Positions 4,495-36,494 of a stretch of DNA of 64,000 nt are shown here, piece by piece; position 1 is the first letter of the stretch; the number at the start of each line of letters is the position of its first letter. The DNA comes from Candidatus Nanoarchaeia archaeon (lineage in GTDB: Bacteria; Patescibacteriota; Microgenomatia; Woykebacterales; RBG-16-39-9b). The position numbers were made by a program, and so were the translations under genes. The notes beneath the pieces were generated by a model that made no database searches, was not told the origin of the DNA, and saw only the letters and a program-made list of their open reading frames with translations. The stretch covers positions 9,147 to 73,146 of the forward strand of contig DATBWR010000004.1 of assembly GCA_036514715.1 (NCBI GenBank), given 5' to 3'.

Positions 4495-5785
4495 AGATAC
4501 TTCTGGTAAAGCTAATAACTCCGCTGATAAGACCGTTATCTGGAAAAGGCTTTTTCTAGCAACCGCGCTGGTTTTGGTAGGAGTATTAGTAGCCAGCTTG
4601 CCTTTACCTCACCCCCTGACTTCGCGTCCGGTTACTACTAATTTAACCGGTGTTTTACTAACCCTTGGCAGCCTGCTAGCAGGTTTGGTAGTTTGGTGGA
4701 GCCTGCTGGCGCAAAAGTTCTCACCGCAAGTGAGAACTTTTGTAGAGGTGCTCATTTACTTGACAGCTATTAACATAGTAGTCAAGTTTACCGGTGGTCT
4801 CTATAGTTACTTCACTTTTCTTTATTTCCTCCCCATCCTTTATTCAGCCAGTAACTTTACTGCTAGGTACAGCTGGGCGGTTTTTATTTTTACAGCCCTT
4901 ATTATGAGTTTTCACCTGCTCGATAATAACGGAAGCTCATTTTCCGGCTCTGTCAGCGCACTAATCCTTAATTTGTTTGGGGTTTGGCTGGTTAACGGTT
5001 TGGGTAGGTCTCTAGCAGAACAGCTCGAACTTATTCATCAACGTCAAGTTGAAATTCAACTCGAACAACTCAATAAACTTGACAAGATTAAAGACGAATT
5101 TGTCTTTATTATCGCTCACGAACTGAGAAGCCCAATTACAGCTATCAGGGGTTATTTGGAATTGATAACAACCGATAGTGCCTTGAAGATTTCGGAAAGC
5201 CTAAAAAGTCTTTTGCAGAAGAGCTTTAATACCAGTACTAAGTTGGCTAATTTAGTAGGGTTGCTGCTGGAGATTGCTCGGATTGAGACCGGTAAAATTC
5301 GCTTCTACTATCAAAAAATCGATCTTCGCGACTCTTTGGATTTTGTTACGGCAGCTCTTAGAAGCGAGGCGGCCCAAAAGGATATCCAAATTACTACTCA
5401 GGTTGAAAAAGAAAATATTGTTTCAGTTGACAAAGAACGTTTGGAGGAAATTCTTAACATCATTATTGGTAACGCTATTGAGTACACGAGAGAGCATGGG
5501 AAAATCTTGATCAGTAGTCAGTCAACTGAGAAAGAGATTATCCTCTCAATTTCTGATACTGGAGTCGGTATCGCACCGGACAAAAAGGACAAGATTTTCG
5601 AAAAAATTTCTTCTGATGATGATCAAAACGGAGAAGCAACAGTTAAAGAGTATAGGATAAGCTTATACGTTGCCAGGCAGTTGTTGGCTCTCATGAAAGG
5701 CGATATAACTTGTGAGAGTGTTGTGGGTAGGGGAACGACCTTTAACCTTTCGCTACCCCGCTATTGGAGTTGGGGGACCCCTTAG
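4487..5785 (+). CDS. sensor histidine kinase
   Basis: H-box FVFIIAHELRSPITAIRGYLEL. N/G boxes IIGNAIEYT, DTGVGI, GRGTTFNLSLP. Overlaps the upstream kinase gene by 8 nt. Confidence 0.85.
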   Translation: MDKDTSGKANNSADKTVIWKRLFLATALVLVGVLVASLPLPHPLTSRPVTTNLTGVLLTLGSLLAGLVVWWSLLAQKFSPQVRTFVEVLIYLTAINIVVKFTGGLYSYFTFLYFLPILYSASNFTARYSWAVFIFTALIMSFHLLDNNGSSFSGSVSALILNLFGVWLVNGLGRSLAEQLELIHQRQVEIQLEQLNKLDKIKDEFVFIIAHELRSPITAIRGYLELITTDSALKISESLKSLLQKSFNTSTKLANLVGLLLEIARIETGKIRFYYQKIDLRDSLDFVTAALRSEAAQKDIQITTQVEKENIVSVDKERLEEILNIIIGNAIEYTREHGKILISSQSTEKEIILSISDTGVGIAPDKKDKIFEKISSDDDQNGEATVKEYRISLYVARQLLALMKGDITCESVVGRGTTFNLSLPRYWSWGTP

Positions 5786-7140: not shown

Positions 7141-7410
7141 TGTATAATCTGTTTAGCACTCAAAAACTAAAAAAAAGGGAATTTATCCGGGACATAGCTA
7201 ATTACCTATGGGGCGAAAAAGCCCTCCGTTTCTTCGGAAACGGGGACCGGTCTGTCTTGGCTGGTAAGAGACCAGCTTCAAACGGTTGTTAAGCGGAAGA
7301 CAGCGCGCTAATTAACAATCGATCTTGCACCCTCAAAACCCGAGCCACTGCGGTGGGGTTGGGTAGTTGTCTGACAGAGGGGCTCCCTGTTACCCGAATC
7401 TTCCACAGGT
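7141..7410 (+). ncRNA. putative tracrRNA-like structured RNA with a 3' anti-repeat (strand tentative)
   Basis: Extended -10 TGTATAAT at 7141-7148. Hairpin CCGTTTC-TTCG-GAAACGG (UUCG tetraloop) at about 7225-7242. Nested stems CTGTCTT...AAGACAG and GCTGGT-aagag-ACCAGC. The stretch 7381-7404 (GGCTCCCTGTTACCCGAATCTTCC) is complementary to repeat nt 6-26, giving 9-bp and 8-bp duplexes. It ends 49 nt before the first repeat. Confidence 0.5.
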
Positions 7411-7453
7411 TCAAGAAGCACGACTCCCGAAAGATTTCAAGCCTAACGGGGTT

Positions 7454-7706
7454 GTTGCATTCGGGTGCAAAACAGGGAGTAGAGTGTAACTTTCAAAAGC
7501 GCTGCCAGAACTATCAACACTAATAAGTTGCATTCGGGTGCAAAACAGGGAGTAGAGTGTAACAACAATCTTGATCATGAAACCACTCTTCATGTAAGTT
7601 GCATTCGGGTGCAAAACAGGGAGTAGAGTGTAACTCAAAAACAATGCTTCCGGTGTTGGCCAGTTTGATGTTGCATTCGGGTGCAAAACAGGGAGTAGAG
7701 TGTAAC
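7454..7706 (+). CRISPR. CRISPR array: 4 identical 37-nt repeats and 3 spacers of 36, 34 and 35 nt (transcribed strand uncertain)
   Basis: Repeat GTTGCATTCGGGTGCAAAACAGGGAGTAGAGTGTAAC occurs at 7454-7490, 7527-7563, 7598-7634 and 7670-7706. It carries an internal palindrome TTGCA-TTCGGG-TGCAA. Spacers are unique within the array. Confidence 0.95.
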
Positions 7707-7710
7707 AAAA

Positions 7711-7750
7711 TGGAGATGGTTTTCCCTTTACCATCTCCACTTTCTTCTTG
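7711..7750 (+). terminator. rho-independent terminator-like hairpin after the array
   Basis: Stem TGGAGATGG (7711-7719) pairs with CCATCTCCA (7731-7739) around an 11-nt loop, followed by CTTTCTTCTT. Confidence 0.6.
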
Positions 7751-7777
7751 ACTTCTCAATCATTTTTCAGTTAAAAC
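7748..7777 (+). promoter_or_regulatory. candidate sigma70-like promoter for cas1
   Basis: TTGACT (7748-7753), 17-nt spacer, TTAAAA (7771-7776). The cas1 start codon (GTG 7784 or ATG 7790) follows closely, so the leader is short or absent. Confidence 0.4.
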
Positions 7778-7783
7778 ATAAGT

Positions 7784-8782
7784 GTGTTAATGCACGAAAC
7801 CCTTTTGATCGATAAACCAGGCACTTTTCTGGGTAAGAAAAGCAGAAGAGTGGTGGTCAAAACTCCTGATTCGACAGAAGAATTTCCTTTGCTAAAAATT
7901 AAAGAGATTAACCTTGTTGGAACCGGTATTTCTTTGTCCGACGACCTAGTTTACCAGGCAGTTAAGCAAGAAGTGCAGATAAATTTTCAGGACAGATTAG
8001 GTAGGGTTTACGCTAGTATAGTCTCACCCTTTCTTAATCAAACAGTGGCAACTGTTAGGGCTCAGATAGGAGCGGAAGACACAGAAAAAGCCGCTGGTCT
8101 TGCCAAGGAGATCGTTCTGGTCAAAATTGCCAACCAGGAAAAACTACTGAGGTATTTTCTTAAGCACCAAAGGGTTTATTATCCGACCAACGCAGAGAAA
8201 ATTGGAGAGTTGAGCAACACCCTAGACTCTTTGGGTGAACAACTGCTAGTTACAAGCTTCAAACCGCTTAATTATCATAATCAATTATTTTCTTTTGAAG
8301 GCAGAGCCTCGGACAGTTATTGGCGAGGGGTTAAGTTGTTGATAGGAGGCAAAGTTGATTTCCCGGGTCGTAAAGGTAGAGGCGCGAAAGATTTGGTGAA
8401 CAGTCTGCTCAATTACGGTTACGCCATTTTGTACTCGAGGGTTTTAGCAGCATTGTTGGCCAACGGCCTTTTACCCTTCGCCGGATTTCTTCACAAAGAC
8501 CGTTCTGGGAAAAGTTCTCTTGTTTTGGATATTATGGAAATCTTTCGCCAGAAGATTGTTGATGAAACTTTGTTGATCTTTTTGAACAAGAAAAAATTGG
8601 AACCTACACTTGACCAAAACACCCTTTTTGCCTTTTCACAAAAAGTAGTTGAGAGATTTTCCTCAACCGGAAGGTTCGTTGATAACAAAAACTACACAGT
8701 GGAGAAAATAATCAGCCTGCAGGTTCAAGGTATTGCCGCCTATCTACGCGGAAATAAAAATCTAAATTTAGTTTCTTTATGA
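7784..8782 (+). CDS. cas1: CRISPR-associated endonuclease Cas1
   Basis: Cas1 hallmark block DLVNSLLNYGYAILYSRVLAALLANGLLPFAGFLHKDRSGKSSLVLDIMEIFRQKIVDE. Start is GTG at 7784 or ATG at 7790. Confidence 0.92.
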   Translation: MLMHETLLIDKPGTFLGKKSRRVVVKTPDSTEEFPLLKIKEINLVGTGISLSDDLVYQAVKQEVQINFQDRLGRVYASIVSPFLNQTVATVRAQIGAEDTEKAAGLAKEIVLVKIANQEKLLRYFLKHQRVYYPTNAEKIGELSNTLDSLGEQLLVTSFKPLNYHNQLFSFEGRASDSYWRGVKLLIGGKVDFPGRKGRGAKDLVNSLLNYGYAILYSRVLAALLANGLLPFAGFLHKDRSGKSSLVLDIMEIFRQKIVDETLLIFLNKKKLEPTLDQNTLFAFSQKVVERFSSTGRFVDNKNYTVEKIISLQVQGIAAYLRGNKNLNLVSL

Positions 8783-9033
8783 AAGTTTTGGTAGTCTACG
8801 ATATTTCCCAAGACAAGGAGCGGGGAAAAGTTGCCGAGATTTGTCTGGATTACGGTCTGGAAAGAATTCAGAAGAGTGCTTTTCTTGGCGAACTTAGCGA
8901 AACTTTACGACAGCGGTTGGTGGGAGAATTGAAGGAAAAGCTAGTAGGTAAAACCTTTAACCTGCAGGTATTTGAGTTAGATAAGAATTCTGCTAAGAAG
9001 AGATTAGTTTTTGAGGCAAAAAAGAAGGGGTAA
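8779..9033 (+). CDS. cas2: CRISPR-associated endoribonuclease Cas2
   Basis: 84 aa beginning MKVLVVYDISQDKERGKVAEI...QKSAF. Overlaps cas1 by 4 nt (ATGA). Confidence 0.9.
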   Translation: MKVLVVYDISQDKERGKVAEICLDYGLERIQKSAFLGELSETLRQRLVGELKEKLVGKTFNLQVFELDKNSAKKRLVFEAKKKG

Positions 9034-9056
9034 TAGCTATCTGGCTACTACCCCTT
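9025..9056. terminator. bidirectional terminator hairpin between the convergent cas2 and effector genes
   Basis: AAGGGGTA (9025-9032) pairs with TACCCCTT (9049-9056) around a 16-nt loop. The hairpin spans both stop codons. It is T-rich on the minus-strand side (CTTCTTTTTTGC). Confidence 0.6.
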
Positions 9057-10497
9057 TGACGAATAACTCCTGTGCTCGACGGGCCAAGTTTAAGGCAGTG
9101 TTGAAACCGGTGTTGTGCCGTGTTCCGCAATTACCGCAATAAACAGTGGGTCCCTTCAGAGAGATTGGTTGATCACCTTCTTTATTGGCCGCTCCGCAAG
9201 TTGAACAAAGCATCTTGGCTGTTGCCGAGTAGACCGAATAAGGTTTAGGCAAACCTTCCTTAACCGCTTTGTAGCTGGTCAGATCGGCGAGTTTCCCAAA
9301 TGGCCAGTATGACAACCTCAGGTTGAGCCGGGGATTGTATCTACCTTTGGGGATGTTGCCTACCTGCTCGACGGCAGGAACGGATTTGAACCTTAAGGCT
9401 TCTTCGACAATCTGTGCCACCTGACGGTAGTGGAAAGTTTCCAGCTCCTGGGAAAAGGGTCCGCCTCGCCGGCGCAGACGTTCCAACCGAGCAAAGTAGG
9501 TTTTCTCGTACCGCCTTGCTGGTTCCTGACGTTGGTGGACGACATTTCCATCACGATTGATAACTACCACGGTTACTAGATGTTCCAAACCAAAAGATAC
9601 ACCCATGAAGTTTTCCACTTCAAGTAGTGGTTTGGTGGGGATCTCACAAGCGACATTGACGAAAATTCTGCCGTTACGTACCAAGAGTTCCACTCGTTTG
9701 GGTTGGAAGTCTTTCTCACGCAGTAGCACTTCCGAGAGCCACTTTTTGTCTGAACGACGGTGAGTTGCTTTCCAAGTGGGTGGGTTATTCTCGCCTCGTA
9801 TGAAAGTAGCCTCACCCCACTTATCAAACTGAAGTGGAAGTAACAAACCGCTTGTTGAGCGGCTTAGACGGGCAATTTCTTTCTCTCCAAAAACCTGCAG
9901 CGCTGGTCCGCGGTCGGGATCGTAGTTATTGGTGATGTCTTCCTGGTGACTACCTCTTGGGAAAAGAGGAAGGTAGAGATAAAGCTGGCCGGTAATTGAT
10001 TGTTCGTAGCAAACGAACGCCCCTGTCCAGACGATTGGAAACTGATCGCCTATACTTGGATAGCTGGTTTTATCCGTAAATTGCGGGTCCAGTTTCCGCT
10101 TCGCATACGAGAGCAGCAAGTCTGCGACCTTGTGGCGCAAACCGTTTTTAACAGCGGAACCAAGTTGGTAACCCCTGAAAGGGGCAATCTCTTCCAGCTT
10201 TCTTAAGACCCGCATATGTCCAGCCGTTCTTTTGATAGGCCGACCCTCTTTATCAAGAAGTTTTTTGCCGTCTGGATCAGTAGGTTCCCACCAAAGTAGT
10301 TCTTGGTAAGGTTCGAACCAACGCAAGCAGTCGGCAGCTGCCTTTCGAACCGATTGGTTAACCCCAAGTAGAAGGGACAATTTTTTCTGGGGCAACCATT
10401 GCCGCCGCCAAAGCTCGCTGCGGGTTCGATTTTCCGGTAAGTCGTTGAGGGGCAAAGACATTGCCAAAGTCAGGTGCAGAGTGTTTTCTTCTGCCAA
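9037..10497 (-). CDS. miniature TnpB/Cas12f(Cas14)-like type V effector candidate (486 aa) with apparently degenerate RuvC catalytic motifs
   Basis: RuvC-I-like MGVSFGLEHLVTVVV. RuvC-II-like AVEQVGNI. LSYWPFGKLADLTSYKAVKEGLP block. Zinc finger CSTCG...CGNCG, followed by HNTGFNTALNLARRA (cf. HxDxNAAxNIARR). The canonical Asp positions read S and G/T. Good SD sequence AAAGGAGAGAG before the ATG. Coding sequence has higher GC (~50%) than cas1/cas2. Confidence 0.7.
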   Translation of the reverse strand: MAEENTLHLTLAMSLPLNDLPENRTRSELWRRQWLPQKKLSLLLGVNQSVRKAAADCLRWFEPYQELLWWEPTDPDGKKLLDKEGRPIKRTAGHMRVLRKLEEIAPFRGYQLGSAVKNGLRHKVADLLLSYAKRKLDPQFTDKTSYPSIGDQFPIVWTGAFVCYEQSITGQLYLYLPLFPRGSHQEDITNNYDPDRGPALQVFGEKEIARLSRSTSGLLLPLQFDKWGEATFIRGENNPPTWKATHRRSDKKWLSEVLLREKDFQPKRVELLVRNGRIFVNVACEIPTKPLLEVENFMGVSFGLEHLVTVVVINRDGNVVHQRQEPARRYEKTYFARLERLRRRGGPFSQELETFHYRQVAQIVEEALRFKSVPAVEQVGNIPKGRYNPRLNLRLSYWPFGKLADLTSYKAVKEGLPKPYSVYSATAKMLCSTCGAANKEGDQPISLKGPTVYCGNCGTRHNTGFNTALNLARRAQELFVKGVVAR

Positions 10498-13961: not shown

Positions 13962-13991
13962 TTGACACTTTTCCCTATCCCCTGTTAATAT
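13962..13991 (+). promoter_or_regulatory. promoter of the ArsR-family regulator gene
   Basis: TTGACA (13962-13967), 18-nt spacer, TAATAT (13986-13991). The -10 hexamer lies inside the palindrome at 13985-14014. Confidence 0.5.
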
Positions 13992-14014
13992 ATGAATAGT
14001 TATTCATATATTAA
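13985..14014. promoter_or_regulatory. 30-bp perfect palindrome (ArsR/SmtB-type 12-2-12 operator candidate), copy 1
   Basis: TTAATATATGAATA-GT-TATTCATATATTAA. Core ATATATGAATA-NN-TATTCATATAT recurs at 23997-24020, 36496-36519 and 63751-63774. Confidence 0.7.
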
Positions 14015-14026
14015 CCTAGTCTGCCG

Positions 14027-14392
14027 ATGAACAAACAAACTGTTAGTAAAACCCGCAGCCGACCCCTAACCCCTACTCTGACAGCTTTAAAAATCAAGAA
14101 TTTACAAGAAATTTTGTCAAAGAACGGTAGTTTCCAAAGGGAAAGAAATTTGGCCGAAATAGTTAGTGGCGAAACCCGTCTGAAAATCTTGTACGCACTG
14201 GCCCGTGAAAATTATCTCTCGGTCAGTGATATTGCCGATATTCTGAAATCCAAGCAGAGTGGGGTTTCCCACCAATTAGCTATCCTGCGAAAAGAAGGTT
14301 TAGTCAAGACCAAAAAGAGACAACGGCTAGTTTTTTATTCGCTAACTAAGCCTTTACCAAAATTGATTTGGGCAGCAGTAGATTTGCGCTAA
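14027..14392 (+). CDS. ArsR/SmtB-family winged-helix transcriptional regulator (no Cys, so probably not a thiolate metal sensor)
   Basis: TRLKILYALARENYLSVSDIADILKSKQSGVSHQLAILRKEGLV is an ArsR-type HTH with a conserved recognition helix. Confidence 0.75.
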   Translation: MNKQTVSKTRSRPLTPTLTALKIKNLQEILSKNGSFQRERNLAEIVSGETRLKILYALARENYLSVSDIADILKSKQSGVSHQLAILRKEGLVKTKKRQRLVFYSLTKPLPKLIWAAVDLR

Positions 14393-14443: not shown

Positions 14444-15475
14444 ATGTATAAGCTAGCAATTAACGGTTTTGGAAGAATTGGCCGGAGCGCTTTTAAGGTT
14501 GCTATTGATAAACACAGCAGTGAAATTGAAATTGTCGGCATTAACGATCTTACCTCTCCAACTGTTTTAGCTCATCTTTTGAAATACGACAGCGTCTATG
14601 GTTTGTATAACCACGAAGTTGGTAGTGATGCACAAAATGTAATCGTTGACGGTAAAAAATTTCGAGTTTATGCGGAAAAGGATCCGACTGCCCTGCCTTG
14701 GGGCCAACTTGGTGTGGATATTGTTATCGAGTCTACGGGTCGGTTTACTGATCTTGAAGGGGCAAGTGCCCATATTAAAGCCGGCGCCAAGAGAGTGGTT
14801 ATTTCCGCACCAGCCAAAGGAGAAGGTGTTGGTACGTACTTAATTGGTGTTAACGCACAAAATGATAGTGGGCAGCAGAGAGTAATTAACAACGCTTCCT
14901 GCACCACCAACTGTATCGCTCCAGTGGCGGCTGTCATGAGCGCTAAATTCGGAATCTTAAAGGCCATGATGACGACTGTGCACTCAGTAACTGCCGAACA
15001 AAACTTGGTTGACGGTCCCCCACCCGGCGGAAAGTCAACTGACCTGCGACGAGCTCGGGCTGCTTACGTCAACATTATTCCCACTACCACCGGAGCAGCT
15101 GTCGCCACAACCGAAGCAATTCCAGAACTAAAAGGCTTGTTTGACGGGGCTTCCCTGCGAGTCCCAACTATTTGTGGATCAATCTCCGACTTTACTTTTC
15201 TGGTAAAGACAAAAGTGACTGTTGAAGATGTTAATAATGCCTTTAAGGAGGCAGCCCAAACACCTCTTTTAAAAGGAGTTTTGGCCTTCAGCGAAGAACC
15301 TTTGGTTTCTAGTGACATTATTGGTCGAACCGAAAGCGCTGTTGTTGATCTGTTCCTAACTAAGGTTGTTGACGGCGACATGGTGAAAGTTTTTGCTTGG
15401 TACGATAACGAACTAGGTTATTCCCATCGGTTGGTTGAACAAGTAATTCATGCGGCCAGTTTAATTAAAACTTAG
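14444..15475 (+). CDS. gap: glyceraldehyde-3-phosphate dehydrogenase
   Basis: INGFGRIGR NAD-binding motif and the active-site SCTTNC. Confidence 0.95.
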   Translation: MYKLAINGFGRIGRSAFKVAIDKHSSEIEIVGINDLTSPTVLAHLLKYDSVYGLYNHEVGSDAQNVIVDGKKFRVYAEKDPTALPWGQLGVDIVIESTGRFTDLEGASAHIKAGAKRVVISAPAKGEGVGTYLIGVNAQNDSGQQRVINNASCTTNCIAPVAAVMSAKFGILKAMMTTVHSVTAEQNLVDGPPPGGKSTDLRRARAAYVNIIPTTTGAAVATTEAIPELKGLFDGASLRVPTICGSISDFTFLVKTKVTVEDVNNAFKEAAQTPLLKGVLAFSEEPLVSSDIIGRTESAVVDLFLTKVVDGDMVKVFAWYDNELGYSHRLVEQVIHAASLIKT

Positions 15476-15490
15476 TTCCAAGAACGTTAG

Positions 15491-15940
15491 ATGAAAATTT
15501 ATTTAGCTTCCGATCATGGAGGATTTGAACTTAAAGAGAAAATAAAAAAACATCTTGAAGAAGCTGGTAGGCAGGTAATTGATTTGGGTCCGGAAGAACT
15601 GAACCCAGAAGATGATTTTCCGGATTTTGCTGTTCCCCTGGCTGAAAAAGTGGCACAGGACCAAGAAAATCTGGGAATTGTCTTGTGTCGTAACGGTGTT
15701 GGTGTCGAAGTAGCCGCTAACAAAATTGATGGTGTGAGAGCAGCTTTGTCTTGGGAACCGCAACACGCCGCCAGCAGTCGAGAAGATGATAATTCCAATG
15801 TTTTGGCACTACCTGCCGATTATTTAGAAGAGAAAAAAGCTTTTGAAATAGTTGATAAATGGGTTTCCACACCTTACAAAGGCGAGGCGCGTTTTGAAAG
15901 ACGGCTGAAAAAAATTGAAAAGGAGGAAGATGAGCGTTGA
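15491..15940 (+). CDS. rpiB: ribose-5-phosphate isomerase B (RpiB/LacAB family)
   Basis: MKIYLASDHGG...GIVLCRNGVGVEVAANK. Confidence 0.85.
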   Translation: MKIYLASDHGGFELKEKIKKHLEEAGRQVIDLGPEELNPEDDFPDFAVPLAEKVAQDQENLGIVLCRNGVGVEVAANKIDGVRAALSWEPQHAASSREDDNSNVLALPADYLEEKKAFEIVDKWVSTPYKGEARFERRLKKIEKEEDER

Positions 15941-16616
15941 AATACTCCCGGCCATTTTAAGTAAGACTTCCTCAGATTATCATCGCAAACTAAAGGCAAT
16001 CGAACCTCACGCCTCTTGGGTGCAAATTGATATTGTTGACAACGTTTATGCGCGTAACCAAACTATTGACGCCAAGGTTGTTGCTTCGATCCGTACCCGC
16101 TTAAAACTGGAAATCCACCTAATGGTCGAGCACATCGAAAACTGGTTAGATCCGTTTTTAGCGATTCGGCCGGCTCGTATTGTTTTCCCTTTGGAAGCTT
16201 CTTACGAGCCGATACAGCTGGTTAGGCATATGAAGGCCCACCAAATGCCGTTTGGATTTTCCATCGAGCCGAAAACCTCAGCTGAGAGCTTGCAACATTT
16301 AGTCGATAAAATTGATATTGCCCTACTACTTGCCGTCCACCCGGGGTTTTCCGGCCAACATTTCGCCTTTGGTGTTTTGGAAAAAATCAGAAAATTGCGG
16401 GCGATGCGACCCGATCTTTTAATCGAAGTGGATGGTGGGATTGAGCCTGACACCGCTGCCAAATGTGCTGCTGTTGGTGCTAACGTACTAGCCGCCGGTA
16501 GTTTTATTTTCGATAATGATAAAATGGATGGAGCTACTTACAACGAGAAGGTTAGGAACGCTTACTCTACGCTGAAAGAAGCGGTGGCAGATGTAATACC
16601 AGAAGAGGGTGCCTAA
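15930..16616 (+). CDS. rpe: ribulose-phosphate 3-epimerase (likely start ATG at 15930, after RBS AAAGGAGGAAG)
   Basis: VQIDIVDNVYARNQTI, HLMVEH, VHPGFSGQHF, DGGIEPDTAAKCAAVGANVLAAGSFIF. Confidence 0.8.
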   Translation: MSVEILPAILSKTSSDYHRKLKAIEPHASWVQIDIVDNVYARNQTIDAKVVASIRTRLKLEIHLMVEHIENWLDPFLAIRPARIVFPLEASYEPIQLVRHMKAHQMPFGFSIEPKTSAESLQHLVDKIDIALLLAVHPGFSGQHFAFGVLEKIRKLRAMRPDLLIEVDGGIEPDTAAKCAAVGANVLAAGSFIFDNDKMDGATYNEKVRNAYSTLKEAVADVIPEEGA

Positions 16617-16633
16617 AAAGGAGGTGAAAAGCT

Positions 16634-17071
16634 TTGCGAAGTTTAATTATTGGCATAGTAATCGTTGCGCTCATAGCAGTTGGCGTCTTTGTTTTCGTTA
16701 ACAGCTCTTCTGACGAGTCAGGATCGGAAAGTCAGACAAGTTCACAAGGAGCCAAGGATACCTCGGGTAATTCTAGCTCAAAGGCTCCTAGTGAGGTGAC
16801 GATTACTTACACTAGCAGCGGTTTTTCACCCAGTTCAGTACGTTTAAAGAAAGGCGGGAAATTAACTTGGGTTAATGAGAGTTCCAACCAAGTCGAAATT
16901 GGCGTTAATCCCCATCCAGTCCACACCGGCGACCGAAGCATAACCAGCGAAGAGTTTACTCTAAATTTGGATAGCGGTGAAACAAAAACTATTACGGTTA
17001 ATAAAGCAGGTGACTTTGGTTACCATAACCACCTTGATTCTTTAATGAGCGGCAATATTTTAGTCGAATAA
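16634..17071 (+). CDS. membrane-anchored cupredoxin-like fold protein (no Cys ligand)
   Basis: N-terminal TM helix, Ser-rich linker, then a beta-sandwich-like segment TITYTSSGFSPSSVRLKKGGKLTWVN...GDFGYHNH. TTG start after an AAAGGAGG RBS. Confidence 0.5.
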   Translation: MRSLIIGIVIVALIAVGVFVFVNSSSDESGSESQTSSQGAKDTSGNSSSKAPSEVTITYTSSGFSPSSVRLKKGGKLTWVNESSNQVEIGVNPHPVHTGDRSITSEEFTLNLDSGETKTITVNKAGDFGYHNHLDSLMSGNILVE

Positions 17072-17087
17072 AACAAAGAACTGCCCT

Positions 17088-17960
17088 ATGGAAAACGCTA
17101 ATCCACGAGCCGATCACAAAACTTTAGAGCATCTCTCAAAAATTGCCTACGATATCCGTGAGGATATTATCAAGATGCTGTTGGAGGCTGGGAGCGGCCA
17201 CTCCGCGGGACCTTTGGGGATGGCCGATGTTTTCACTGCGCTGTATTTTGCCGTCCTTAATCACGACCCTGAAAACCCCAAGTGGGCCGACCGAGACCGG
17301 TTAGTTTTATCCAACGGCCACATTTGTCCGGTTTGGTACACAACACTAGCCCACGCTGGTTACTTCCCCAGAGAGGAACTTTATACTTTAAGAAAAATTA
17401 ACTCCCGTCTTCAGGGCCACCCTCACTACGGATCTTTACCTGGCGTGGAAAATACTGGCGGTCCCTTGGGACAAGGTTTATCGCAAGCCATTGGGATGGC
17501 CCTCTCTGCTCGGATGGACAAAAAAAGATACTGGACTTACTGTATGATGAGTGACGGTGAGCATGATGAAGGGCAGACTTGGGAAGCAATTTTGTTTGCC
17601 GGCAAAAACAAGCTTGGTAATTTAACTGCTATTGTTGACCGTAACAATATTCAGATTGACGGTTTTACTGAGGATATTATGCCGCTGGAACCGTTTAAGG
17701 AAAAACATGAAGCCTTCGGTTGGCATGTTCAGGAAGTGGATGGGCACAATATTCAGGCGGTAATTGATGCTTGCAACGGGGCTAAAGCAATTTTCAACAA
17801 GCCGAGTGTTATCATCGCCCACACCATACCTGGTAAAGGTGTTGATTTTATGGAAAGAGATTGGGTGTGGCACGGTAAACCGCCCAACCCTGAAGAAGCA
17901 AAACGTGCTTTGAAAGAACTTCGAACTCTGAAAGGTAAAATCACCGGCGAACACGAATAA
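17088..17960 (+). CDS. transketolase, N-terminal (TPP-binding) subunit
   Basis: GSGHSAGPLGMADVFTALYF, GHPHYGSLPGVENTGGPLGQGL. Confidence 0.9.
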   Translation: MENANPRADHKTLEHLSKIAYDIREDIIKMLLEAGSGHSAGPLGMADVFTALYFAVLNHDPENPKWADRDRLVLSNGHICPVWYTTLAHAGYFPREELYTLRKINSRLQGHPHYGSLPGVENTGGPLGQGLSQAIGMALSARMDKKRYWTYCMMSDGEHDEGQTWEAILFAGKNKLGNLTAIVDRNNIQIDGFTEDIMPLEPFKEKHEAFGWHVQEVDGHNIQAVIDACNGAKAIFNKPSVIIAHTIPGKGVDFMERDWVWHGKPPNPEEAKRALKELRTLKGKITGEHE

Positions 17961-18031
17961 CAATGTTTCAACTTATTAACAAATTAAAACAAAAGGAGGC
18001 TAAAAGTACGAGGACGTATAATTAGGAAATT

Positions 18032-18523
18032 ATGAATCAAATTGTCAAAATCGGTTTAGGGTTGGCAATAGCAATTATTTTTCCGTTGATGGTTGGTTTG
18101 GGGGTGGAAGCTTTTTATCCCAGTCCGAAGAGTCAGTACGAAAAATGTCGCTATCCAGTGGTAGAAGCGGCGGCAGCTGGTACTGTTAGTGAAAAATCAC
18201 CAATTTATCCGGAAGACGACCCAACTTACAAAAAATGTATTGATGATCAGGAAAAAATCGTTAACACTTACAACCGTAACGCTTTTGTAGTTATTACTAT
18301 TCTCGGCTTTGTGGCGATTGCAGTTGGGGCACTCTTCTTTAATGAGTCGCTGGGTCCGGTTGCCCCTGGGTTAGTCTTCGGCGGACTTTTCACCATTCTT
18401 TATGGTGCGGGCAGAGGCTTTACTGCTGTTGATAAACGCTGGTTATTCGCGGAGTTGGTAGTTTTGCTGGTCGGTTTAATTCTTGTGACGCGGCGCTTCT
18501 TAATGACGCAAGCTAAAAAATGA
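18032..18523 (+). CDS. hypothetical membrane protein
   Basis: Several hydrophobic segments; lies between the two transketolase halves. Confidence 0.5.
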   Translation: MNQIVKIGLGLAIAIIFPLMVGLGVEAFYPSPKSQYEKCRYPVVEAAAAGTVSEKSPIYPEDDPTYKKCIDDQEKIVNTYNRNAFVVITILGFVAIAVGALFFNESLGPVAPGLVFGGLFTILYGAGRGFTAVDKRWLFAELVVLLVGLILVTRRFLMTQAKK

Positions 18524-18561
18524 ACCGCTATGCGTTTCGTTTCTCGCTAAAATGAGTAGAT

Positions 18562-19539
18562 ATGAGCTTTTTAAACCCTAGACTTTTTGACAAAGAGGTT
18601 GAACAAGCTGGAACCAGGGATGGTTATGGCAAGGCATTGCTCGAACTTGGGGAGTCCAATAAAAACGTCTTGGTCTTAACTGCCGATTTGGCCGAGTCAA
18701 CTCGAGTCGAAGAGTTTGGGAAAAAGTTTCCTGACCGATTTATTGAATGCGGAGTGGCCGAACAAAATATGATGGGAATTGCCGCCGGACTTGCCCTAAG
18801 TGGAAAAATTCCCTTTGTCAGTTCCTACGCGGTCTTTTCTCCGGGGCGAAGTTGGGATCAATTTCGGGTGAGTGTCTGTTATACCGAAGCGAATGTTAAA
18901 GTTGCCGGTGCCCACTCTGGTATTTCCGTGGGTCCAGATGGTGCTACCCACCAAGCCTTGGAAGATATTGCTATGACGCGAGTTTTGCCCAATCTGGTGG
19001 TGGAAGTTCCCTGCGATGCCCAAGAAGCACGTAAAACTACTCTTGCCGCAGCAGCTCATAAAGGCCCTTTTTATTTTCGCTTTGGTCGGGAGAAAACGCC
19101 GATTATTACCACAGAAGAGGCGCCTTTCGAGGTCGGCAAAGCCGAAGTTTTTAAAGATGGAGATGATGTGACAATTGTTGCTTGTGGACCGCTTGTTTAC
19201 CAAGCGCTCCTTGCGGCCGAGCATTTGGAGAAAAAAGGAGTTAACCCTCGAGTAATCAATAATCATACAATTAAACCAATCGATACTCTCACTTTGGCAA
19301 AAGCAGCCAAAGAAACCGGCGCTATAGTCACCGTTGAAGAGCACCAAGTGATGGGTGGAATGGGTAGTGCAGTGGCCGAAGCTTTAGCTAAGAACTACCC
19401 AGTGCCTATAGAATTTATCGGTATGCAGGATACTTTTGGTGAAAGCGGCAAACCAAATGAACTTTATGAAAAATACGGCATGAGTCCTGACGCGATAATC
19501 GCCGCGGTTAACACCGTTTTAAAAAGAAAGAACAACTAA
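18562..19539 (+). CDS. transketolase, C-terminal (pyrimidine-binding) subunit
   Basis: GVAEQNMMGIAAGLALSGKIPFVSSYAVF...GPDGATHQALEDIAMTRVLPN. Confidence 0.9.
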   Translation: MSFLNPRLFDKEVEQAGTRDGYGKALLELGESNKNVLVLTADLAESTRVEEFGKKFPDRFIECGVAEQNMMGIAAGLALSGKIPFVSSYAVFSPGRSWDQFRVSVCYTEANVKVAGAHSGISVGPDGATHQALEDIAMTRVLPNLVVEVPCDAQEARKTTLAAAAHKGPFYFRFGREKTPIITTEEAPFEVGKAEVFKDGDDVTIVACGPLVYQALLAAEHLEKKGVNPRVINNHTIKPIDTLTLAKAAKETGAIVTVEEHQVMGGMGSAVAEALAKNYPVPIEFIGMQDTFGESGKPNELYEKYGMSPDAIIAAVNTVLKRKNN

Positions 19540-19877
19540 TGTTACAAAAAACTCTTGCAGTACTTTATTTAATCTTAGTGGTGGTAACAATAACCTACTC
19601 ATCAGGTGACCTTTTGCTAATTGCGGGTGAGGTTTTTGTCCTGCTTATTGCTAGTGCGTTATTGCTGAAACCGTTTAATAAAATACTACTTATACTATTT
19701 CTGGCGTTGACCTCGCTTGATCTTGCTTGGTTTATTTACGAGTTTGGTATTACAAGTTTTTCGGGATGCGAGGGTTCAGGAGACTTTGCCTGTGGGTTGG
19801 GAGTAATTCTCAGTTTACTTTTAGCGCCTGTTCTAGTTTTAACTCTAATAGTGCTTGTTAAACTTTTAAGAAAATGA
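19539..19877 (+). CDS. small hypothetical membrane protein
   Basis: 112 aa with three hydrophobic helices; start/stop overlap with neighbouring genes. Confidence 0.45.
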   Translation: MLQKTLAVLYLILVVVTITYSSGDLLLIAGEVFVLLIASALLLKPFNKILLILFLALTSLDLAWFIYEFGITSFSGCEGSGDFACGLGVILSLLLAPVLVLTLIVLVKLLRK

Positions 19878-20251
19878 CTTCTAAAATTGTTTTTTGGGTT
19901 CCAAGAATATTAGGAATAGTATCGTTACTGGCCCTTTTGTACTACCAAAGTAGCTTTGATATGACTTTTGGAGTTCTTTTCTTTGACATAATTGCCTTTA
20001 TACCATTACTTTCGCTATCTTTATCTTCAGTAGGTTCTGTTTTGAGAACAGTTATGTTTATATTAGGTTTATTCATTCTTGGTATGTGGTATTTCGTTTA
20101 CCTGCTAGGGGCAGGTTTATCTTCTAGTAATGGGGAACCAAGGCTTACTTATTTTTACCTATACCTAGTAACCTATTTGGTAGCACTAGTTTGGTTACTT
20201 ATTGGGAACCGTAAGAAAGTTACAAATGACACCAAAAGAGTGGTTAGCTAG
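19874..20251 (+). CDS. small hypothetical membrane protein
   Basis: 125 aa, multi-TM. Confidence 0.45.
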   Translation: MTSKIVFWVPRILGIVSLLALLYYQSSFDMTFGVLFFDIIAFIPLLSLSLSSVGSVLRTVMFILGLFILGMWYFVYLLGAGLSSSNGEPRLTYFYLYLVTYLVALVWLLIGNRKKVTNDTKRVVS

Positions 20252-21089
20252 AGCTAAAAACGAGGGTTTTGCCATACCTGCCTTAAACGCGGGGACTTTT
20301 GAGACTCTTAAGGGAATTGTTGCGGCCGCTAGCGAGGCAAAATCGCCGGTGATTATTGAAACTTCCACTAACGAAACCAAGTGGATGGAAGCCAAGAATG
20401 TACTGTGCATGTGCCGTAACTTTTCCGAAGAATACGGTGTGCCAGTTTTGGTTAATCTAGACCACGCCTACACTGAGGAAGATTTAAAACCAGGGTTTGA
20501 AGCAGGTTACGACCTAATTCATTTTGATGGCTCCAAACTTCCCTACGAAGAAAACGTGGCTATTGCCAAAAAAGTGGTTGCGGCTGCTCGCGAGCATGGT
20601 CAAATTGTCGAAGGAGAGATGGATAAAATTGTTGGTGAAGGTTCCGAAGTCCATACTACTCAGGTCGACCAAAGTGCAATTGACGCTGGTAAGAGTAAAC
20701 CGGAGACCGCCGCTAAATTTGTTAGCGAAACCGGCGTGGATATTTACGCTTCTTTCTTTGGTAACGTCCACGGCATTTACCCCGGTTATACTCCACACCT
20801 TGATATCGAACTCTTGAAAAAAATCCAAGAGGCCATTCCCAACACCTTTCTTTCGATGCACGGGTCTTCCGGAACTCCGGACGATCAAGTGAAAGCAGCG
20901 GTTGCCACGGGTGTTGTCAAAGTTAACGTTAATACGGAGCTAAGGCTCGCCTATCGTCAGTCTTTAGAAAAAGCGTTAGCTGAACATAAAGAAATCGCTA
21001 TGTACAAGGTTTTTCCGGAAGTTGTCGAAGCAGTCAAAAAAGAAGCTTTAAGGTGGATTGGAATGTGCGGTTCTGGAGGCAAGGTGTAA
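20226..21089 (+). CDS. fba: class II fructose/tagatose-bisphosphate aldolase (likely start ATG at 20226)
   Basis: AIPALNAGTFETLKGIVAAASEAKSPVIIETS...LDHAYTEE...HGSSGTPDDQV. Confidence 0.85.
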   Translation: MTPKEWLARAKNEGFAIPALNAGTFETLKGIVAAASEAKSPVIIETSTNETKWMEAKNVLCMCRNFSEEYGVPVLVNLDHAYTEEDLKPGFEAGYDLIHFDGSKLPYEENVAIAKKVVAAAREHGQIVEGEMDKIVGEGSEVHTTQVDQSAIDAGKSKPETAAKFVSETGVDIYASFFGNVHGIYPGYTPHLDIELLKKIQEAIPNTFLSMHGSSGTPDDQVKAAVATGVVKVNVNTELRLAYRQSLEKALAEHKEIAMYKVFPEVVEAVKKEALRWIGMCGSGGKV

Positions 21090-22075
21090 TGTACGACATG
21101 ATTAGCGTGGGTGATGCGACCATTGATACTTTTTTAAAAATTAACGATGCGCATATTTCCTGCAACATTAATAAAGAAAACTGCCAGCTCTGTATAAATT
21201 ACGGAGACAAAATTGCCGTGGAGAGTGTTCAGCATTTAGTAGCTGGGAACGCGGCCAACAACGCGGTCGGATCGGCCCGTTTGGGATTGAAAACGGCTAT
21301 CTACGTTAACGTTGGGTCAGATGAGCCGGGTTTCAAGATCAAAAAGAAGTTAGTCGAAGAAAAAGTTTCTCCTAACTATATCAAAGTTAACGAGGGTATG
21401 GAGTCCAACTACTCAGCCGTAATTAATTTTCAAGGGGAGCGCACGATTTTGGTCTATCACCAAGAGTGGAAGTACGATCTGCCGGAGATGGAACAGGCAA
21501 AATGGGTTTACTACACCAGTGCTGCCCCAAGTTTTGTTAACGGTACCTTTTCTCAGGATTTAGCCGCCTACGTTAAAGAAAACAGGGCTAAAATGGGTTA
21601 CAACCCTGGGACTTATCAAATTAAGGCTGGTGTGAAAAATTTCAAAGACATTTTAGAGGCGACAGAAGTCTTTTTTGTTAACACAGAAGAGGCAGAAAGA
21701 ATTTTGGGGATAGAAGGTAGCGGCAAAGTGGAAATTAAAGACTTATTGAAGAAAACTCGTGACGAGCTTGGTTTGAAGATAGTCGTGATTACTGATGGAC
21801 GTGAGGGTTCTTACAGTTTTGACGGAAACGATTACTGGAAACTACCGGAATATCCAGGCGACAGAATTGAAGCCACTGGAGCAGGCGATGCTTACGCAAC
21901 CGCACTTTGTGCAGCCCTTTTTTACGAAAAACCTTTACCGGAGGCTATGGTTTGGGGTAGTATTAACGGAGCTTTGGTAGTTGGCAAAGTAGGTCCTCAG
22001 GCAGGGTTAGCAACTTTAGAAGTAATGGACCAAAAAATCAAAGCTTTGCTCAACTTTAAGGCAGAAAAATTCTAA
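21089..22075 (+). CDS. PfkB-family carbohydrate kinase (start probably 21089; TAATG overlap with fba)
   Basis: MISVGDATIDTF, GGNAANNAVGSARLG, TGAGDAYATALCAAL. Confidence 0.8.
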   Translation: MYDMISVGDATIDTFLKINDAHISCNINKENCQLCINYGDKIAVESVQHLVAGNAANNAVGSARLGLKTAIYVNVGSDEPGFKIKKKLVEEKVSPNYIKVNEGMESNYSAVINFQGERTILVYHQEWKYDLPEMEQAKWVYYTSAAPSFVNGTFSQDLAAYVKENRAKMGYNPGTYQIKAGVKNFKDILEATEVFFVNTEEAERILGIEGSGKVEIKDLLKKTRDELGLKIVVITDGREGSYSFDGNDYWKLPEYPGDRIEATGAGDAYATALCAALFYEKPLPEAMVWGSINGALVVGKVGPQAGLATLEVMDQKIKALLNFKAEKF

Positions 22076-22077
22076 AA

Positions 22078-22326
22078 ATGAACGTAAAAATCTATACCAC
22101 AACCACGTGCCCTTTTTGTCGGATGGAAAAAGAATATCTTGATGCGGCAGGTATAAAATACGAAAATATTTATGTTGACGAAGACCAAGCGGCGGCCCAA
22201 GAACTAATTAATACTTCGCACCAGTTGGGTGTACCTTTTACAGTTGTTACTAAAGACGACGGTTCTAAGGAAAATATTCTGGGTTTCGACAAAACACGTT
22301 TAAAAGAACTTTTTCATCTTTCCTGA
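22078..22326 (+). CDS. glutaredoxin/NrdH-like thiol-disulfide oxidoreductase
   Basis: VKIYTTTTCPFCRMEKEYLD (CPFC active site), 82 aa. Confidence 0.85.
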   Translation: MNVKIYTTTTCPFCRMEKEYLDAAGIKYENIYVDEDQAAAQELINTSHQLGVPFTVVTKDDGSKENILGFDKTRLKELFHLS

Positions 22327-22350
22327 TCCCTGCCCAAGGTAAGTCTAAAC

Positions 22351-23004
22351 ATGGAAAACAACGAGGTTGCTGAGCTTAATAAAAAAGAGCGTAAGGAGTA
22401 TTTAAAAAATCTGCGCGCTGGCCAGTCGGGAAAAGACCGCAAAACCCGTTTGCTTGTTGGTGGTCTGATTGTGACCGGGGTAGTCCTTGCTGGGGCTGGA
22501 CTTTTTTACTTATCTAACTTGAACGCAACCGACAAAATCCCTCCGGTAGGAGAGCTAGTCGATGAAATGCCGGCCCCTAACACCGCGTTACACATTGAAG
22601 TTGGAGCCCAGCACGTTCCCTACAGCACCAACCCACCCACTTCTGGACCACATTACAACGCATCTGGAGCCGGGCCGATTGAGTGTAAGGTTTACGAAGA
22701 TGAGGTGGTGGATGAAGGTGTGATCCACAACTTGGAACATGGCGCAGTCTGGGTAACTTATCAAGATAAGAACGACACTGATCTTGCTGGTAAGTTAAAG
22801 GTGATTGTTGAGGATTACTCAAAAACCGTTCTTTCTCCTCGTTCCAAAAATGACTCCAAAATCGCGCTTGTTGCTTGGCGGCACATTCTGAAACTTGACC
22901 AGTTTGACGAAAAGAAAATTCGCGATTTTATCCGTCTTTACAAAAGCTCCAAAGAAGCTCCGGAGCCCCTTGCGGGTTGTGGAACTGCGGTGCCGGGAAG
23001 GTAA
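22351..23004 (+). CDS. DUF3105-like membrane-anchored protein
   Basis: TM helix LLVGGLIVTGVVLAGAGLFYL, then PPTSGPHY...NLEHGAVWVTY. Confidence 0.55.
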   Translation: MENNEVAELNKKERKEYLKNLRAGQSGKDRKTRLLVGGLIVTGVVLAGAGLFYLSNLNATDKIPPVGELVDEMPAPNTALHIEVGAQHVPYSTNPPTSGPHYNASGAGPIECKVYEDEVVDEGVIHNLEHGAVWVTYQDKNDTDLAGKLKVIVEDYSKTVLSPRSKNDSKIALVAWRHILKLDQFDEKKIRDFIRLYKSSKEAPEPLAGCGTAVPGR

Positions 23005-23008
23005 AAAA

Positions 23009-23533
23009 ATGGCTTTAGAAATCCGCACCAAAGAAAAACTAAAGGAAGTTCTCAGAGACCCATCTGCGCAAGGGCCGGACAATGCTTACTACATGATGCG
23101 CGGTATTCCCAACATCACAATTTGGGAGCCGGGTTTTTACGGGCAGGAGTTTAATAAGACTTACGGACACTATCACCTTCACAACGAGCCGGAGACCTAC
23201 CAAGTTTTATTTGGTGAAGGAATTGGAATTTTGCAGCATCGCAGCGAAAGTGGTGAAGTGTATGAGGTCCGCTTGGTGAAAGTTAAGCAAGGTGATACCG
23301 TTAAGGTTCCGCAGGGTGCTTGGGGTCACGCCTTTGCCAACACCGGTAAAACCTATCTGATTACTTCAGATGACGCCAGGAGCGATGCGTCTCATTCCCA
23401 AAACGACTACCTACCGGTGAAAGAAAAACAGGGTATGGCTTATTACATAGTTACCGAAGGCGGGGAAGTGAAAATTATTCCTAACCCCAATTATAAAAAC
23501 TTGCCAGATCCTAAGTGGGTTGACCCAGATTAA
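23009..23533 (+). CDS. cupin-type (archaeal-type) glucose-6-phosphate isomerase candidate (start probably ATG at 23009, after GGAAGG)
   Basis: TYGHYHLHNEPETYQVLFGEGIGILQ matches the cupin metal-binding motif of cPGI. Confidence 0.65.
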   Translation: MALEIRTKEKLKEVLRDPSAQGPDNAYYMMRGIPNITIWEPGFYGQEFNKTYGHYHLHNEPETYQVLFGEGIGILQHRSESGEVYEVRLVKVKQGDTVKVPQGAWGHAFANTGKTYLITSDDARSDASHSQNDYLPVKEKQGMAYYIVTEGGEVKIIPNPNYKNLPDPKWVDPD

Positions 23534-23970
23534 TGGAAAAAAATCAGTTTGATGCCAGTAACTTTACAATCGATGGAAAAGCCGAGCAGGTGGATAAGCC
23601 CTGGGGTTGGGAAATTCACTGGGCTAAAACTCCCGAATATGTCGGCAAACTGCTGCATATTAAGCAGGGCAAGAGACTCTCTCTCCAGTACCACGATCAG
23701 AAAACAGAATCCGAGTTTTTAATCAAAGGTAAAGTTACCTTGTGGTTGGACAACTTGGAGGGCGAGTATACTCCAGTGGAGATGGAGATTGGCAAAGGTT
23801 ACACGATTGTACCCTTCCAACGGCACCGCTTTGAAGCTCAGGAAGATTCCGAAATAATTGAAGTCTCTACTCCGGAAAAGGGTACTACCTACCGTTTGGA
23901 AGATGATTTTAAACGTCCGGATGAAACCGAAGAGCTTCGAAGTCAGCCTGGGCGTGGTTGGAAACCTTAA
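23533..23970 (+). CDS. cupin-domain protein (sugar-phosphate isomerase-like)
   Basis: KPWGWEIHWA...LSLQYHDQKTESEFLIKGKV is a cupin motif. Confidence 0.55.
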   Translation: MEKNQFDASNFTIDGKAEQVDKPWGWEIHWAKTPEYVGKLLHIKQGKRLSLQYHDQKTESEFLIKGKVTLWLDNLEGEYTPVEMEIGKGYTIVPFQRHRFEAQEDSEIIEVSTPEKGTTYRLEDDFKRPDETEELRSQPGRGWKP

Positions 23971-23994: not shown

Positions 23995-24022
23995 AAATAT
24001 ATGAATAGTTATTCATATATTT
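23995..24022. promoter_or_regulatory. palindrome copy 2 (28 bp), immediately upstream of trxB
   Basis: AAATATATGAATA-GT-TATTCATATATTT. It is followed by TGTAAT (24023-24028), 7 nt, then the trxB ATG at 24036. Confidence 0.7.
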
Positions 24023-25028: not shown

Positions 25029-25082
25029 TTGACAACCCCATATCTTGATGCTAGCATTTATTTAGTACCCAATATCTTGTGC
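25029..25082 (+). promoter_or_regulatory. nrdR-nrdJ promoter with two NrdR-box-like sites
   Basis: TTGACA (25029-25034), 17 nt, TAGCAT. Box 1 is ACCCCATATCTTGATG (25035-25050); box 2 is ACCCAATATCTTGTGC (25067-25082). Start-to-start spacing is 32 bp. Box 2 matches the NrdR-box consensus acaCaAtATaTtGtgt at 14 of 16 positions. Confidence 0.6.
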
Positions 25083-28387: not shown

Positions 28388-28439
28388 TTGACAAGACTTT
28401 AACAAACCTTTAGAGTGAGTATACTTTAAAAATTTAGAG

Positions 28440-29041: not shown

Positions 29042-29104
29042 GCTAAAATGTATAATTAGTTAGTTTTGAAACTAATCCTGCCCTAATTATACTTAAAACA
29101 ACTT

Positions 29105-36449: not shown

Positions 36450-36494
36450 TTTACCATTTCTAGGCTTAGAAATCGAATTTTCTTGGCAGCTAGG

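Follow-up and report, generated by a model that had tools for sequence, protein, structure and literature searches.

A 64,000-nucleotide stretch of contig DATBWR010000004.1 (assembly GCA_036514715.1; hereafter the window, meaning the whole stretch of DNA that was analysed) carries four exact copies of a 24-bp palindrome, ATATATGAATA-NN-TATTCATATAT, which we consider likely to be the operator of an adjacent 121-amino-acid ArsR/SmtB-family repressor. The evidence for this proposal includes the exact number and placement of the sites, the association of the same palindrome with ArsR genes across bacteria, and the retention of the first site at the promoters of orthologous regulators.

Four exact copies of a 12-2-12 palindrome

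Scanning the window with the pattern ATATATGAATANNTATTCATATAT (palindrome core TGAATANNTATTCA; up to 3 mismatches permitted) returned matches at 13988–14011, 23997–24020, 36496–36519 and 63751–63774, each with 0 mismatches. These are exactly the four places given in an earlier note on this DNA, whose coordinates were right to within 1 bp, and its view that chance could not have produced them holds, with 0 matches in 100 dinucleotide-preserving shuffles of the window (G+C ~0.44). A degenerate scan of the window relaxed to ≤6 mismatches across the 22 specified bases, and a search for the 14-bp core with 1 mismatch, recovered the same four sites and no copy with 1–6 mismatches; the sites are all-or-none. 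No further copy lies in the 10 kb past the window end (~74 kb of genome read in all), and contigs from other samples of this species match at ~100% identity.

Copies 1–3 are identical at 24 of 24 positions, with GT at the centre, and copy 4 has AG there. Perfect palindromy reaches past the shared 24-mer, with bases that differ from copy to copy. Copy 1 (13984–14015) is a 15-2-15 repeat, GTTAATATATGAATA-GT-TATTCATATATTAAC, and is the proposed operator of the promoter serving the regulator and gap; copy 2 (23995–24022) is a perfect 13-2-13 repeat in the 65-bp spacer between a cupin gene and trxB; copy 3 (36495–36520) is a perfect 12-2-12 repeat between a divergent methyltransferase–Mrr gene (−) and uppS (+); and copy 4 (63749–63776) is a perfect 13-2-13 repeat inside a gene for a GT2–GtrA fusion protein. 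Three of the four lie in short, promoter-proximal intergenic DNA, 11–21 nt from start codons, in a window where intergenic DNA is scarce. In a flank comparison the four loci do not align beyond the palindromes; with its unrelated flanks, the palindrome is a small element with sharp edges rather than a repeat of the transposon type. A mobile repeat, resembling a miniature inverted-repeat transposable element (MITE) or a repetitive extragenic palindrome (REP), was rejected on these unrelated flanks, on the lack of 1–6-mismatch copies in the window and on the emergence of copy 4 without a change in gene length.

The palindrome recurs widely in other bacteria. A scan of one genome per species found the exact pattern at 97 loci, in Bacillota, Chloroflexota, Aminicenantes, Alphaproteobacteria, Campylobacterota, Thermotogota, cyanobacteria and others, and a separate metagenome scan added at least 108 loci, one of those listed being from the organism of the window. 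Among the matches listed, an ArsR-like open reading frame (ORF) lies ≤300 bp away in 110 of 206 exact occurrences, and one is nearby in 90 of the 148 occurrences with ≥450 bp on both sides. In this same set, 98 of the 110 palindrome-associated regulators carry the α5 motif D-x-H-x(9-11)-H-x2-[EH], all but one have either this motif or cysteines (the exception being the window's own regulator, locus L202), and most have a recognition helix of the form [ST]QS[AN][VI]SHQL. Six of ten sampled neighbours were metal-transport genes, encoding CDF efflux pumps, P-type ATPases or an ArsP/HMA permease. A tblastn search comparing the window regulator with palindrome-bearing loci gave ~80 hits; among the matches listed, the palindrome is present in every hit locus, and it lies ≤ ~250 bp from the hit in all but one.

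Inverted repeats of 12-2-12 geometry upstream of or within regulated genes are the operators of SmtB/ArsR repressors (PMC8790569), and the TGAA...TTCA cores here sit in perfect 12-2-12 to 15-2-15 repeats. This literature, together with the ArsR-like genes near 110 of the 206 listed loci, bears out the earlier description of the geometry as typical of ArsR/SmtB operators, and the palindrome is the canonical 12-2-12 operator type of that family, close to an idealized class consensus. The earlier note had also reckoned with a generic repeat; hundreds of loci across bacteria do carry the palindrome, but as the operator of ArsR genes and not as a mobile repeat. The α5 zinc sensors CzrA, SmtB and ZiaR share with the window system the TGAA...TTCA 12-2-12 operator overlapping a promoter (in the window, at copy 1), the fold, the SHQL recognition helix and autoregulation, and in many phyla the exact 24-mer adjoins ArsR genes that have the α5 motif and a CDF or P-type ATPase gene as neighbour (the Staphylococcus hominis locus L078 is one case). 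Those sensors have one or two sites at a single operon that serves metal efflux, whereas the window has four identical sites, and its proposed targets are central-carbon, redox and lipid-carrier genes.

One metagenome contig (L116) carries the exact 24-mer twice in tandem (1121–1144 and 1147–1170), 2 bp apart, which resembles the paired 12-2-12 repeats of the smt operator. Besides the operator, the window has two long perfect palindromes of unrelated sequence: CAAAAGTTCTCAC-CGCAA-GTGAGAACTTTTG (4712–4742; 13-5-13), within a histidine-kinase gene, and ATTGGCGATTTT-TTC-AAAATCGCCAAT (58500–58526; 12-3-12).

The regulator: promoter, orthologues and sensor sites

Copy 1 sits, as the earlier note had it, on the −10 of the regulator gene. 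A σ70-like promoter (13962–13991, +; TTGACA-18-TAATAT with TG ahead of the −10; 10 of 12 matches) has its TAATAT at 13986–13991, overlapping the first 4 nt of the copy-1 24-mer, and the palindrome extends over the expected start site. Orthologues of the regulator are rare: one search returned 8 proteins, and a profile search of 1.84 billion representatives gave one cluster at E ≤ 1e-30, beyond which scores fell steeply. We compared the operator in the four orthologous species with DNA (L108, L113, L109 and L112). In L108 (69% identity) the 24-mer is identical and the flanks are the same; the site reads TTATATGAATAGTCATTCATATAT in L113 (61%), TCATCTGAATAGATATTCATTTAT in L109 (59%) and ATATTTGAATATACATTCAACTAT in L112 (57%), and all three keep the core TGAATA-NN-(T/C)ATTCA. 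The site ends 12–17 nt ahead of the start codon in four of four orthologues, a −35 TTGAC and a −10 TAnnAT align wherever the DNA reaches, and gap follows the regulator in all four, with rpiB and rpe next where the contig extends that far. The columns that never vary are those of the TGAATA and ATTCA cores, and changes in the outer arms are non-compensatory; base-specific recognition by a protein therefore fits this pattern and a hairpin is disfavoured. The overlap of copy 1 with the −10 and +1, combined with this in silico phylogenetic footprint in four orthologous promoters, leaves autoregulation of the regulator gene, as previously proposed, well supported.

Behind the regulator lies a co-directional cluster (14444–23970, +; from gene calls, ORFs and Pfam) with intergenic gaps of ≤ ~71 bp. 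Its order is gap, rpiB, rpe, a cupredoxin-like gene, the N and C halves of a transketolase, fba, pfkB, glutaredoxin, DUF3105, a cupin-type glucose-6-phosphate isomerase and a cupin gene, followed by copy 2 and trxB; gene order is kept in L108, L112, L113 and L226. Between 13900 and 25400 a consensus scan found only two promoter-like sites at 10 of 12 matches plus TG, one ahead of the regulator (13962–13991) and one past trxB, ahead of nrdR (25029–25057), and no strong promoter inside the cluster. With only these two strong promoters and none internal, transcription may run through the whole stretch as one unit, and we read the regulator-headed cluster as probably one operon. Its glucose-6-phosphate isomerase (22970–23533) is of the cupin type (PF06560), and its transketolase is split (17088–19539), an unannotated 163-amino-acid ORF separating the two halves.

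CggR, a SorC/DeoR-family protein with a sugar-phosphate effector, is encoded first in the Bacillus gapA operon. The likeness lies in an autoregulated repressor gene directly upstream of gap that controls central glycolytic genes, but CggR belongs to another family, has another operator and shares no homology with the window regulator, and the analogy hints only at the kind of effector. We found no report in the literature of ArsR regulators of gap/pentose-phosphate operons, nor of ArsR regulons in Patescibacteria.

The regulator itself (14027–14392, +) matches Pfam HTH_5 (PF01022; 56.6 bits, cutoff 22) and NCBIfam NF033788 (68 bits, cutoff 55), is the only ArsR-like ORF in the window and has the recognition helix KQSGVSHQL. 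Its AlphaFold 2 model (predicted local distance difference test score 73) has an extra N-terminal helix, four helices, two strands and a short C-terminal helix, which is the ArsR topology. Foldseek matched the model at probability 1.0 to HlyU, SqrR, CadC, CzrA, SmtB and PagR, with HlyU the best structural match and PagR giving the highest template modelling score relative to the target; the best PDB sequence hits include Lmo1102 (PDB name 'Lmo1102 protein') and pI258 CadC.

The earlier observation that this protein has no Cys or His ligands stands. It contains no cysteine, and its single histidine, H82, lies in the conserved SHQL recognition helix. In contrast to CzrA, SmtB and ZiaR it lacks the α5 site, DxHx10Hx2(H/E): α5 is very short, and the C-terminus, KPLPKLIWAAVDLR, has no Asp or His α5 ligands. 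At the columns of the α3N site (an N-terminal Cys plus CVC) it has P13 and S65-V-S67, and with no cysteine it also lacks the reactive Cys pair of the SqrR/BigR/HlyU or RexT type.

In the nearest relatives outside the regulator's 50% cluster the N-terminal arm reads C-[LMVI]-G-P-T and α3 contains ELCVCD, an arrangement that appears to be the α3N site of the CadC/AztR type, as judged against a CadC reference sequence. The window regulator aligns with these relatives column for column and has a conserved N-terminal arm, but every ligand has been replaced, with Pro in the column of the N-terminal Cys and S-V-S in place of C-V-C. Intermediates occur in sister lineages, with the N-terminal Cys kept in P0005–P0007, CVN in P0007 and P0008, and CVG in P0249, P0251 and P0255; the L226 regulator, also encoded directly upstream of gap, is of the CVG type. 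From these alignments we read the window regulator as a fossil CadC-like α3N sensor that has lost all of its ligands.

HlyU, PagR and NolR likewise have the winged-helix ArsR fold without metal ligands. The operators of those proteins are unlike the metal-sensor 12-2-12 consensus, which the window regulator keeps exactly, and HlyU and SqrR sense persulfides through two cysteines, whereas the window regulator has none. An N-terminal arm, LTPxLT, is conserved in the regulator's clade, and M1, K3, V6, K8, L14, T15, P16, T19, Q27 and L30 are invariant in 8 sequences; the arm has probably kept some role. A recent review describes ArsR members that have no inducer site at all (PMC11672702).

Sites at trxB, uppS and a glycosyltransferase gene, and their surroundings

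The thioredoxin-disulfide reductase gene trxB (24036–24983, +; Pfam Pyr_redox_2) is the last gene before the promoter at 25029–25057, and copy 2 ends 15 nt ahead of its ATG (24036). In L227, which is from the same assembly as L108 and has a TrxB 75% identical to the window's, a perfect palindrome, TCATATGAATAAGTATTCATATGA, lies 11 nt before trxB; it differs from the window site by two symmetric, compensatory changes, and the remainder of the spacer is unrelated to that of the window. The gene stands directly behind the same cluster in L226, L228/L229 and L230, and trxB is probably ancestrally the last gene of the regulator cluster, co-transcribed with it. A TGTAAT-N7-ATG arrangement is readable by eye at trxB. 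In the sub-lineage of the window, as we read it, trxB gained an operator of its own, which would act either as a roadblock within the unit or with a promoter that is weak or leaderless, and this operator may have arisen by copying of a promoter–operator segment. An 8-mer, tcccctgt, stands directly 5' of the palindrome both at the L108 regulator promoter (9950–9965) and at the L227 trxB site (3340–3352).

Gene calls agree with the earlier placement of copy 3 between a divergent methyltransferase–nuclease gene and uppS. The undecaprenyl-diphosphate synthase gene uppS (36532–37221, +; Pfam Prenyltransf, 239 bits) has its likely start at 36541. Copy 3 ends 8 bp upstream of a perfect TATAAT (36528–36533), with the likely ATG 7 nt further on, and this TATAAT-N7-ATG can, in our reading of the sequence, be taken as a −10 with a leaderless start. 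No uppS orthologue is present in the loci retrieved for comparison. On the other side lies a gene for an N6_N4 DNA methyltransferase fused to an Mrr-type nuclease domain (34974–36515, −; assigned from Pfam and the N-terminal translation), whose real start is probably 36449 or 36437, which would put copy 3 ~45–60 bp upstream of it. This gene lies between 30 and 36 kb in the window, in a stretch of lower G+C (0.39–0.40, compared with ~0.44 elsewhere), which may be an acquired defence island abutting copy 3.

Copy 4 is, as the earlier note had it, inside a glycosyltransferase gene. The gene (62607–63845, −; Pfam) encodes a polyprenyl-phosphate glycosyltransferase, a fusion of GT2 and GtrA that is called 'dolichyl-phosphate beta-glucosyltransferase' in some sources, and the palindrome spells K-Y-M-N-T-Y-S-Y-I at codons 24–32, in a variable segment 70–95 nt into the gene. 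GT2 orthologues of the same length have EYLNTYSDE (P0130, 72% identity) or FLKTFxxx at this position, and the palindrome was therefore built by substitutions within the coding sequence, a history that points to DNA-level selection or conversion. In three Chloroflexia loci (L014, L060 and L095) the palindrome and an ArsR gene lie within ~1 kb of a GT2 gene (24–27% identical to that of the window), which may be coincidence.

A second ArsR-family gene lies just past the window end (7282–7800 on the minus strand of L222, or ~66046–66564 in window numbering). Its product is fused to a YHS/TRASH metal-binding domain, and the gene runs divergently to DsbD_TM and Redoxin genes, at the head of a cluster for metal resistance made up of DUF305, MacB, ABC, MerC and P-type ATPase genes. 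The intergenic region there holds ATATTCGAATActTGAATAT, in which related half-site words stand in another arrangement.

The metagenome-assembled genome is labelled 'Candidatus Nanoarchaeia archaeon' at NCBI. Its gene content is bacterial (NrdR, UppS, TrxB and σ70-type promoters), and among named homologues, those closest to its TrxB and glycosyltransferase come from Woykebacteria, Saccharimonadales, Daviesbacteria and other Patescibacteria of the candidate phyla radiation (CPR); the source is probably a CPR bacterium that has been misclassified under its NCBI label. Elsewhere in the window, Cas1 and Cas2 genes occupy 7784–9033, a tandem-repeat search found no CRISPR array in the window, and a 486-amino-acid gene beside them (9037–10497, −) has no Pfam hit on record. 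An AdoCbl-II (cobalamin) riboswitch stands at 28439–28515 (+; 40.4 bits against a gathering threshold of 36.5), with the NrdR and ribonucleotide-reductase genes upstream of it and small ORFs (28619–29638) after it.

Alternative explanations and the proposed regulon

We weighed three other accounts of the palindromes. In the first to be considered here, copy 1 alone is a working operator, and copies 2–4 are by-products of gene conversion, template-switch 'palindrome perfection' or operator duplication with little or no regulatory effect. The copies are all identical with no sites of intermediate quality, only the closest lineage or lineages have the trxB and GT2 sites, copies 2 and 3 have no recognizable promoters, and the tcccctgt that the L227 trxB site shares with that species' regulator promoter hints at copying. 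Against these stand the promoter-proximal position of three copies despite the scarcity of intergenic DNA, the persistence of the trxB site in two species while the spacer around it diverged, and the creation in copy 4 of a 24-bp perfect palindrome within coding sequence, with ~4 residues changed and no indel, which is hard to obtain without selection. We regard this account as decidedly unlikely. Binding of the palindromes by some other protein (the neighbouring ArsR–YHS protein, an ArgR-like protein or a factor linked to the methyltransferase–Mrr gene) is very improbable. There is a second ArsR gene ~2 kb past the window end, copy 3 abuts the methyltransferase–nuclease gene, and the core TGAAT-N4-ATTCA presumably resembles an ARG box. 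However, the site is conserved at the first regulator's promoter in four other species and the exact palindrome pairs with SHQL-type ArsR genes across bacteria, whereas ARG boxes normally come in tandem pairs, none of which was seen in the window. The YHS-fused ArsR in particular was considered unlikely as the binder; its helix is of the SQHL type (RQANLSQHL), and a different inverted repeat stands at its own promoter.

Least probable of the three is that the element acts as a nucleic-acid structure, either a DNA cruciform or an RNA hairpin with a part in termination, processing or stability. Each copy can fold into a 10–14-bp hairpin (−9 to −14.6 kcal/mol; z-scores −3 to −5.7), palindromy runs past the 24-mer with different bases in each copy, and both changes in the L227 site are symmetric and compensatory. 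The stems are nevertheless A+T-rich with no consistent U-tract and a negative terminator scan; the predicted start at copy 1 falls inside the palindrome, so that the hairpin would not be transcribed whole; copy 3 lies upstream of a −10; the arms in L113, L109 and L112 vary non-compensatorily around invariant TGAATA/ATTCA core bases; and no Rfam family matches the palindromes at its gathering threshold. An intrinsic terminator or known RNA was rejected, with terminator scans negative at four of four sites and Rfam hits confined to a tRNA and the cobalamin riboswitch elsewhere.

Operation of the palindrome as the repressor's own operator remains the account we favour, and the points that weigh against it bear mostly on the regulon beyond copy 1. 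No site precedes trxB in L226 (54-bp spacer), L228/L229 (6 bp) or L230 (20 bp, AGGAG); the trxB site is missing in four of five related species and kept only in the closest. A consensus scan found no σ70-like promoter at trxB and no full promoter at uppS, and the mode of action at both genes is guesswork from sequence. The copy-4 site is lineage-specific and not conserved in GT2 orthologues, so that the 'regulon' is mostly young or species-specific. That all copies are identical, with weaker sites absent, is unusual for a transcription-factor regulon and could reflect conversion or copying rather than independent selection, and a density of four per 64 kb could mean dozens of sites in a genome of ~1 Mb, which a global or structural role would fit better than a small regulon. 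A repressor without a sensor also has no obvious way to be relieved. Several expectations of the earlier note were borne out in part only: copy 2 does lie before trxB, but the promoter it was said to abut was not found by the scan; the suggested check for conservation at trxB orthologues came out positive in L227 and negative in four other relatives; and the envisaged four-member regulon gains from the trxB site in the closest species and loses from its absence in those relatives and from the intragenic, lineage-specific GT2 site. Should the regulon claim fail, what is left is an ordinary ArsR gene with autoregulation.

Under the operator reading, the regulator would bind as a homodimer, each KQSGVSHQL helix reading one TGAATA half-site, by analogy with CzrA and SmtB. 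A dimer on copy 1 would mask the −10 and +1 of the promoter, the only strong one before a unit of 16 or 17 genes (probably including trxB), and would give negative autoregulation together with control of the glycolysis and non-oxidative pentose-phosphate genes. Before trxB, copy 2 would serve as an internal operator or roadblock, or act with a promoter that is weak or leaderless; at copy 3 the regulator would sit over the −35 and spacer of the uppS TATAAT-N7-ATG, and also upstream of the divergent methyltransferase; and copy 4, if bound, would form a roadblock inside the GT2–GtrA gene. Because the regulator has lost all ligands, the signal cannot be classical metal or thiol chemistry; it may be a metabolite or a partner acting through the conserved N-terminal arm, or there may be no effector and only simple homeostatic feedback. 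We infer all of this from the position of the sites and from comparison between species: that the protein binds and represses, that roadblocks form, and what the signal may be.

A common functional thread can tentatively be proposed for the targets, in which uppS makes the polyprenyl carrier, GT2–GtrA glycosylates it and the gap/pentose-phosphate cluster supplies sugar phosphates; glutaredoxin, TrxB and the DsbD and Redoxin genes just upstream of GT2 would bring thiol redox into it. A bolder and, in our view, unlikely version makes this sensor-less former metal sensor a global regulator of a reduced CPR genome with dozens of identical palindromes, intragenic roadblocks included. Such a regulator would tie together sugar-phosphate metabolism, thiol redox (grx, trxB) and the glycosylation of lipid carriers (uppS, the polyprenyl-phosphate glycosyltransferase), take its input from a new ligand or partner through the conserved, cysteine-free N-terminal arm, and have its sites spread and kept perfect by conversion or template switching.

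Bacteria of the CPR carry very few regulators, and to our knowledge almost nothing has been reported on their transcriptional regulation. The system described here is a real and largely ordinary repressor–operator pair. What is unusual is that the α3N sensor is fully lost while a textbook metal-sensor operator is kept, that the targets belong to central metabolism, redox and the envelope in a CPR bacterium, and that four exactly identical sites occur, one of them intragenic; a familiar metal switch has, it seems, been rewired so as to serve housekeeping genes. The locus is a directly testable repressor–operator pair, for which the textbook metal-sensor site makes binding assays and reporters straightforward. 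With the stepwise loss of the metal site recorded across sister lineages, from CVC through CVN/CVG to SVS, it offers a clean case of how an ArsR scaffold is re-used after its allosteric site has decayed, and of what, if anything, replaces the signal.

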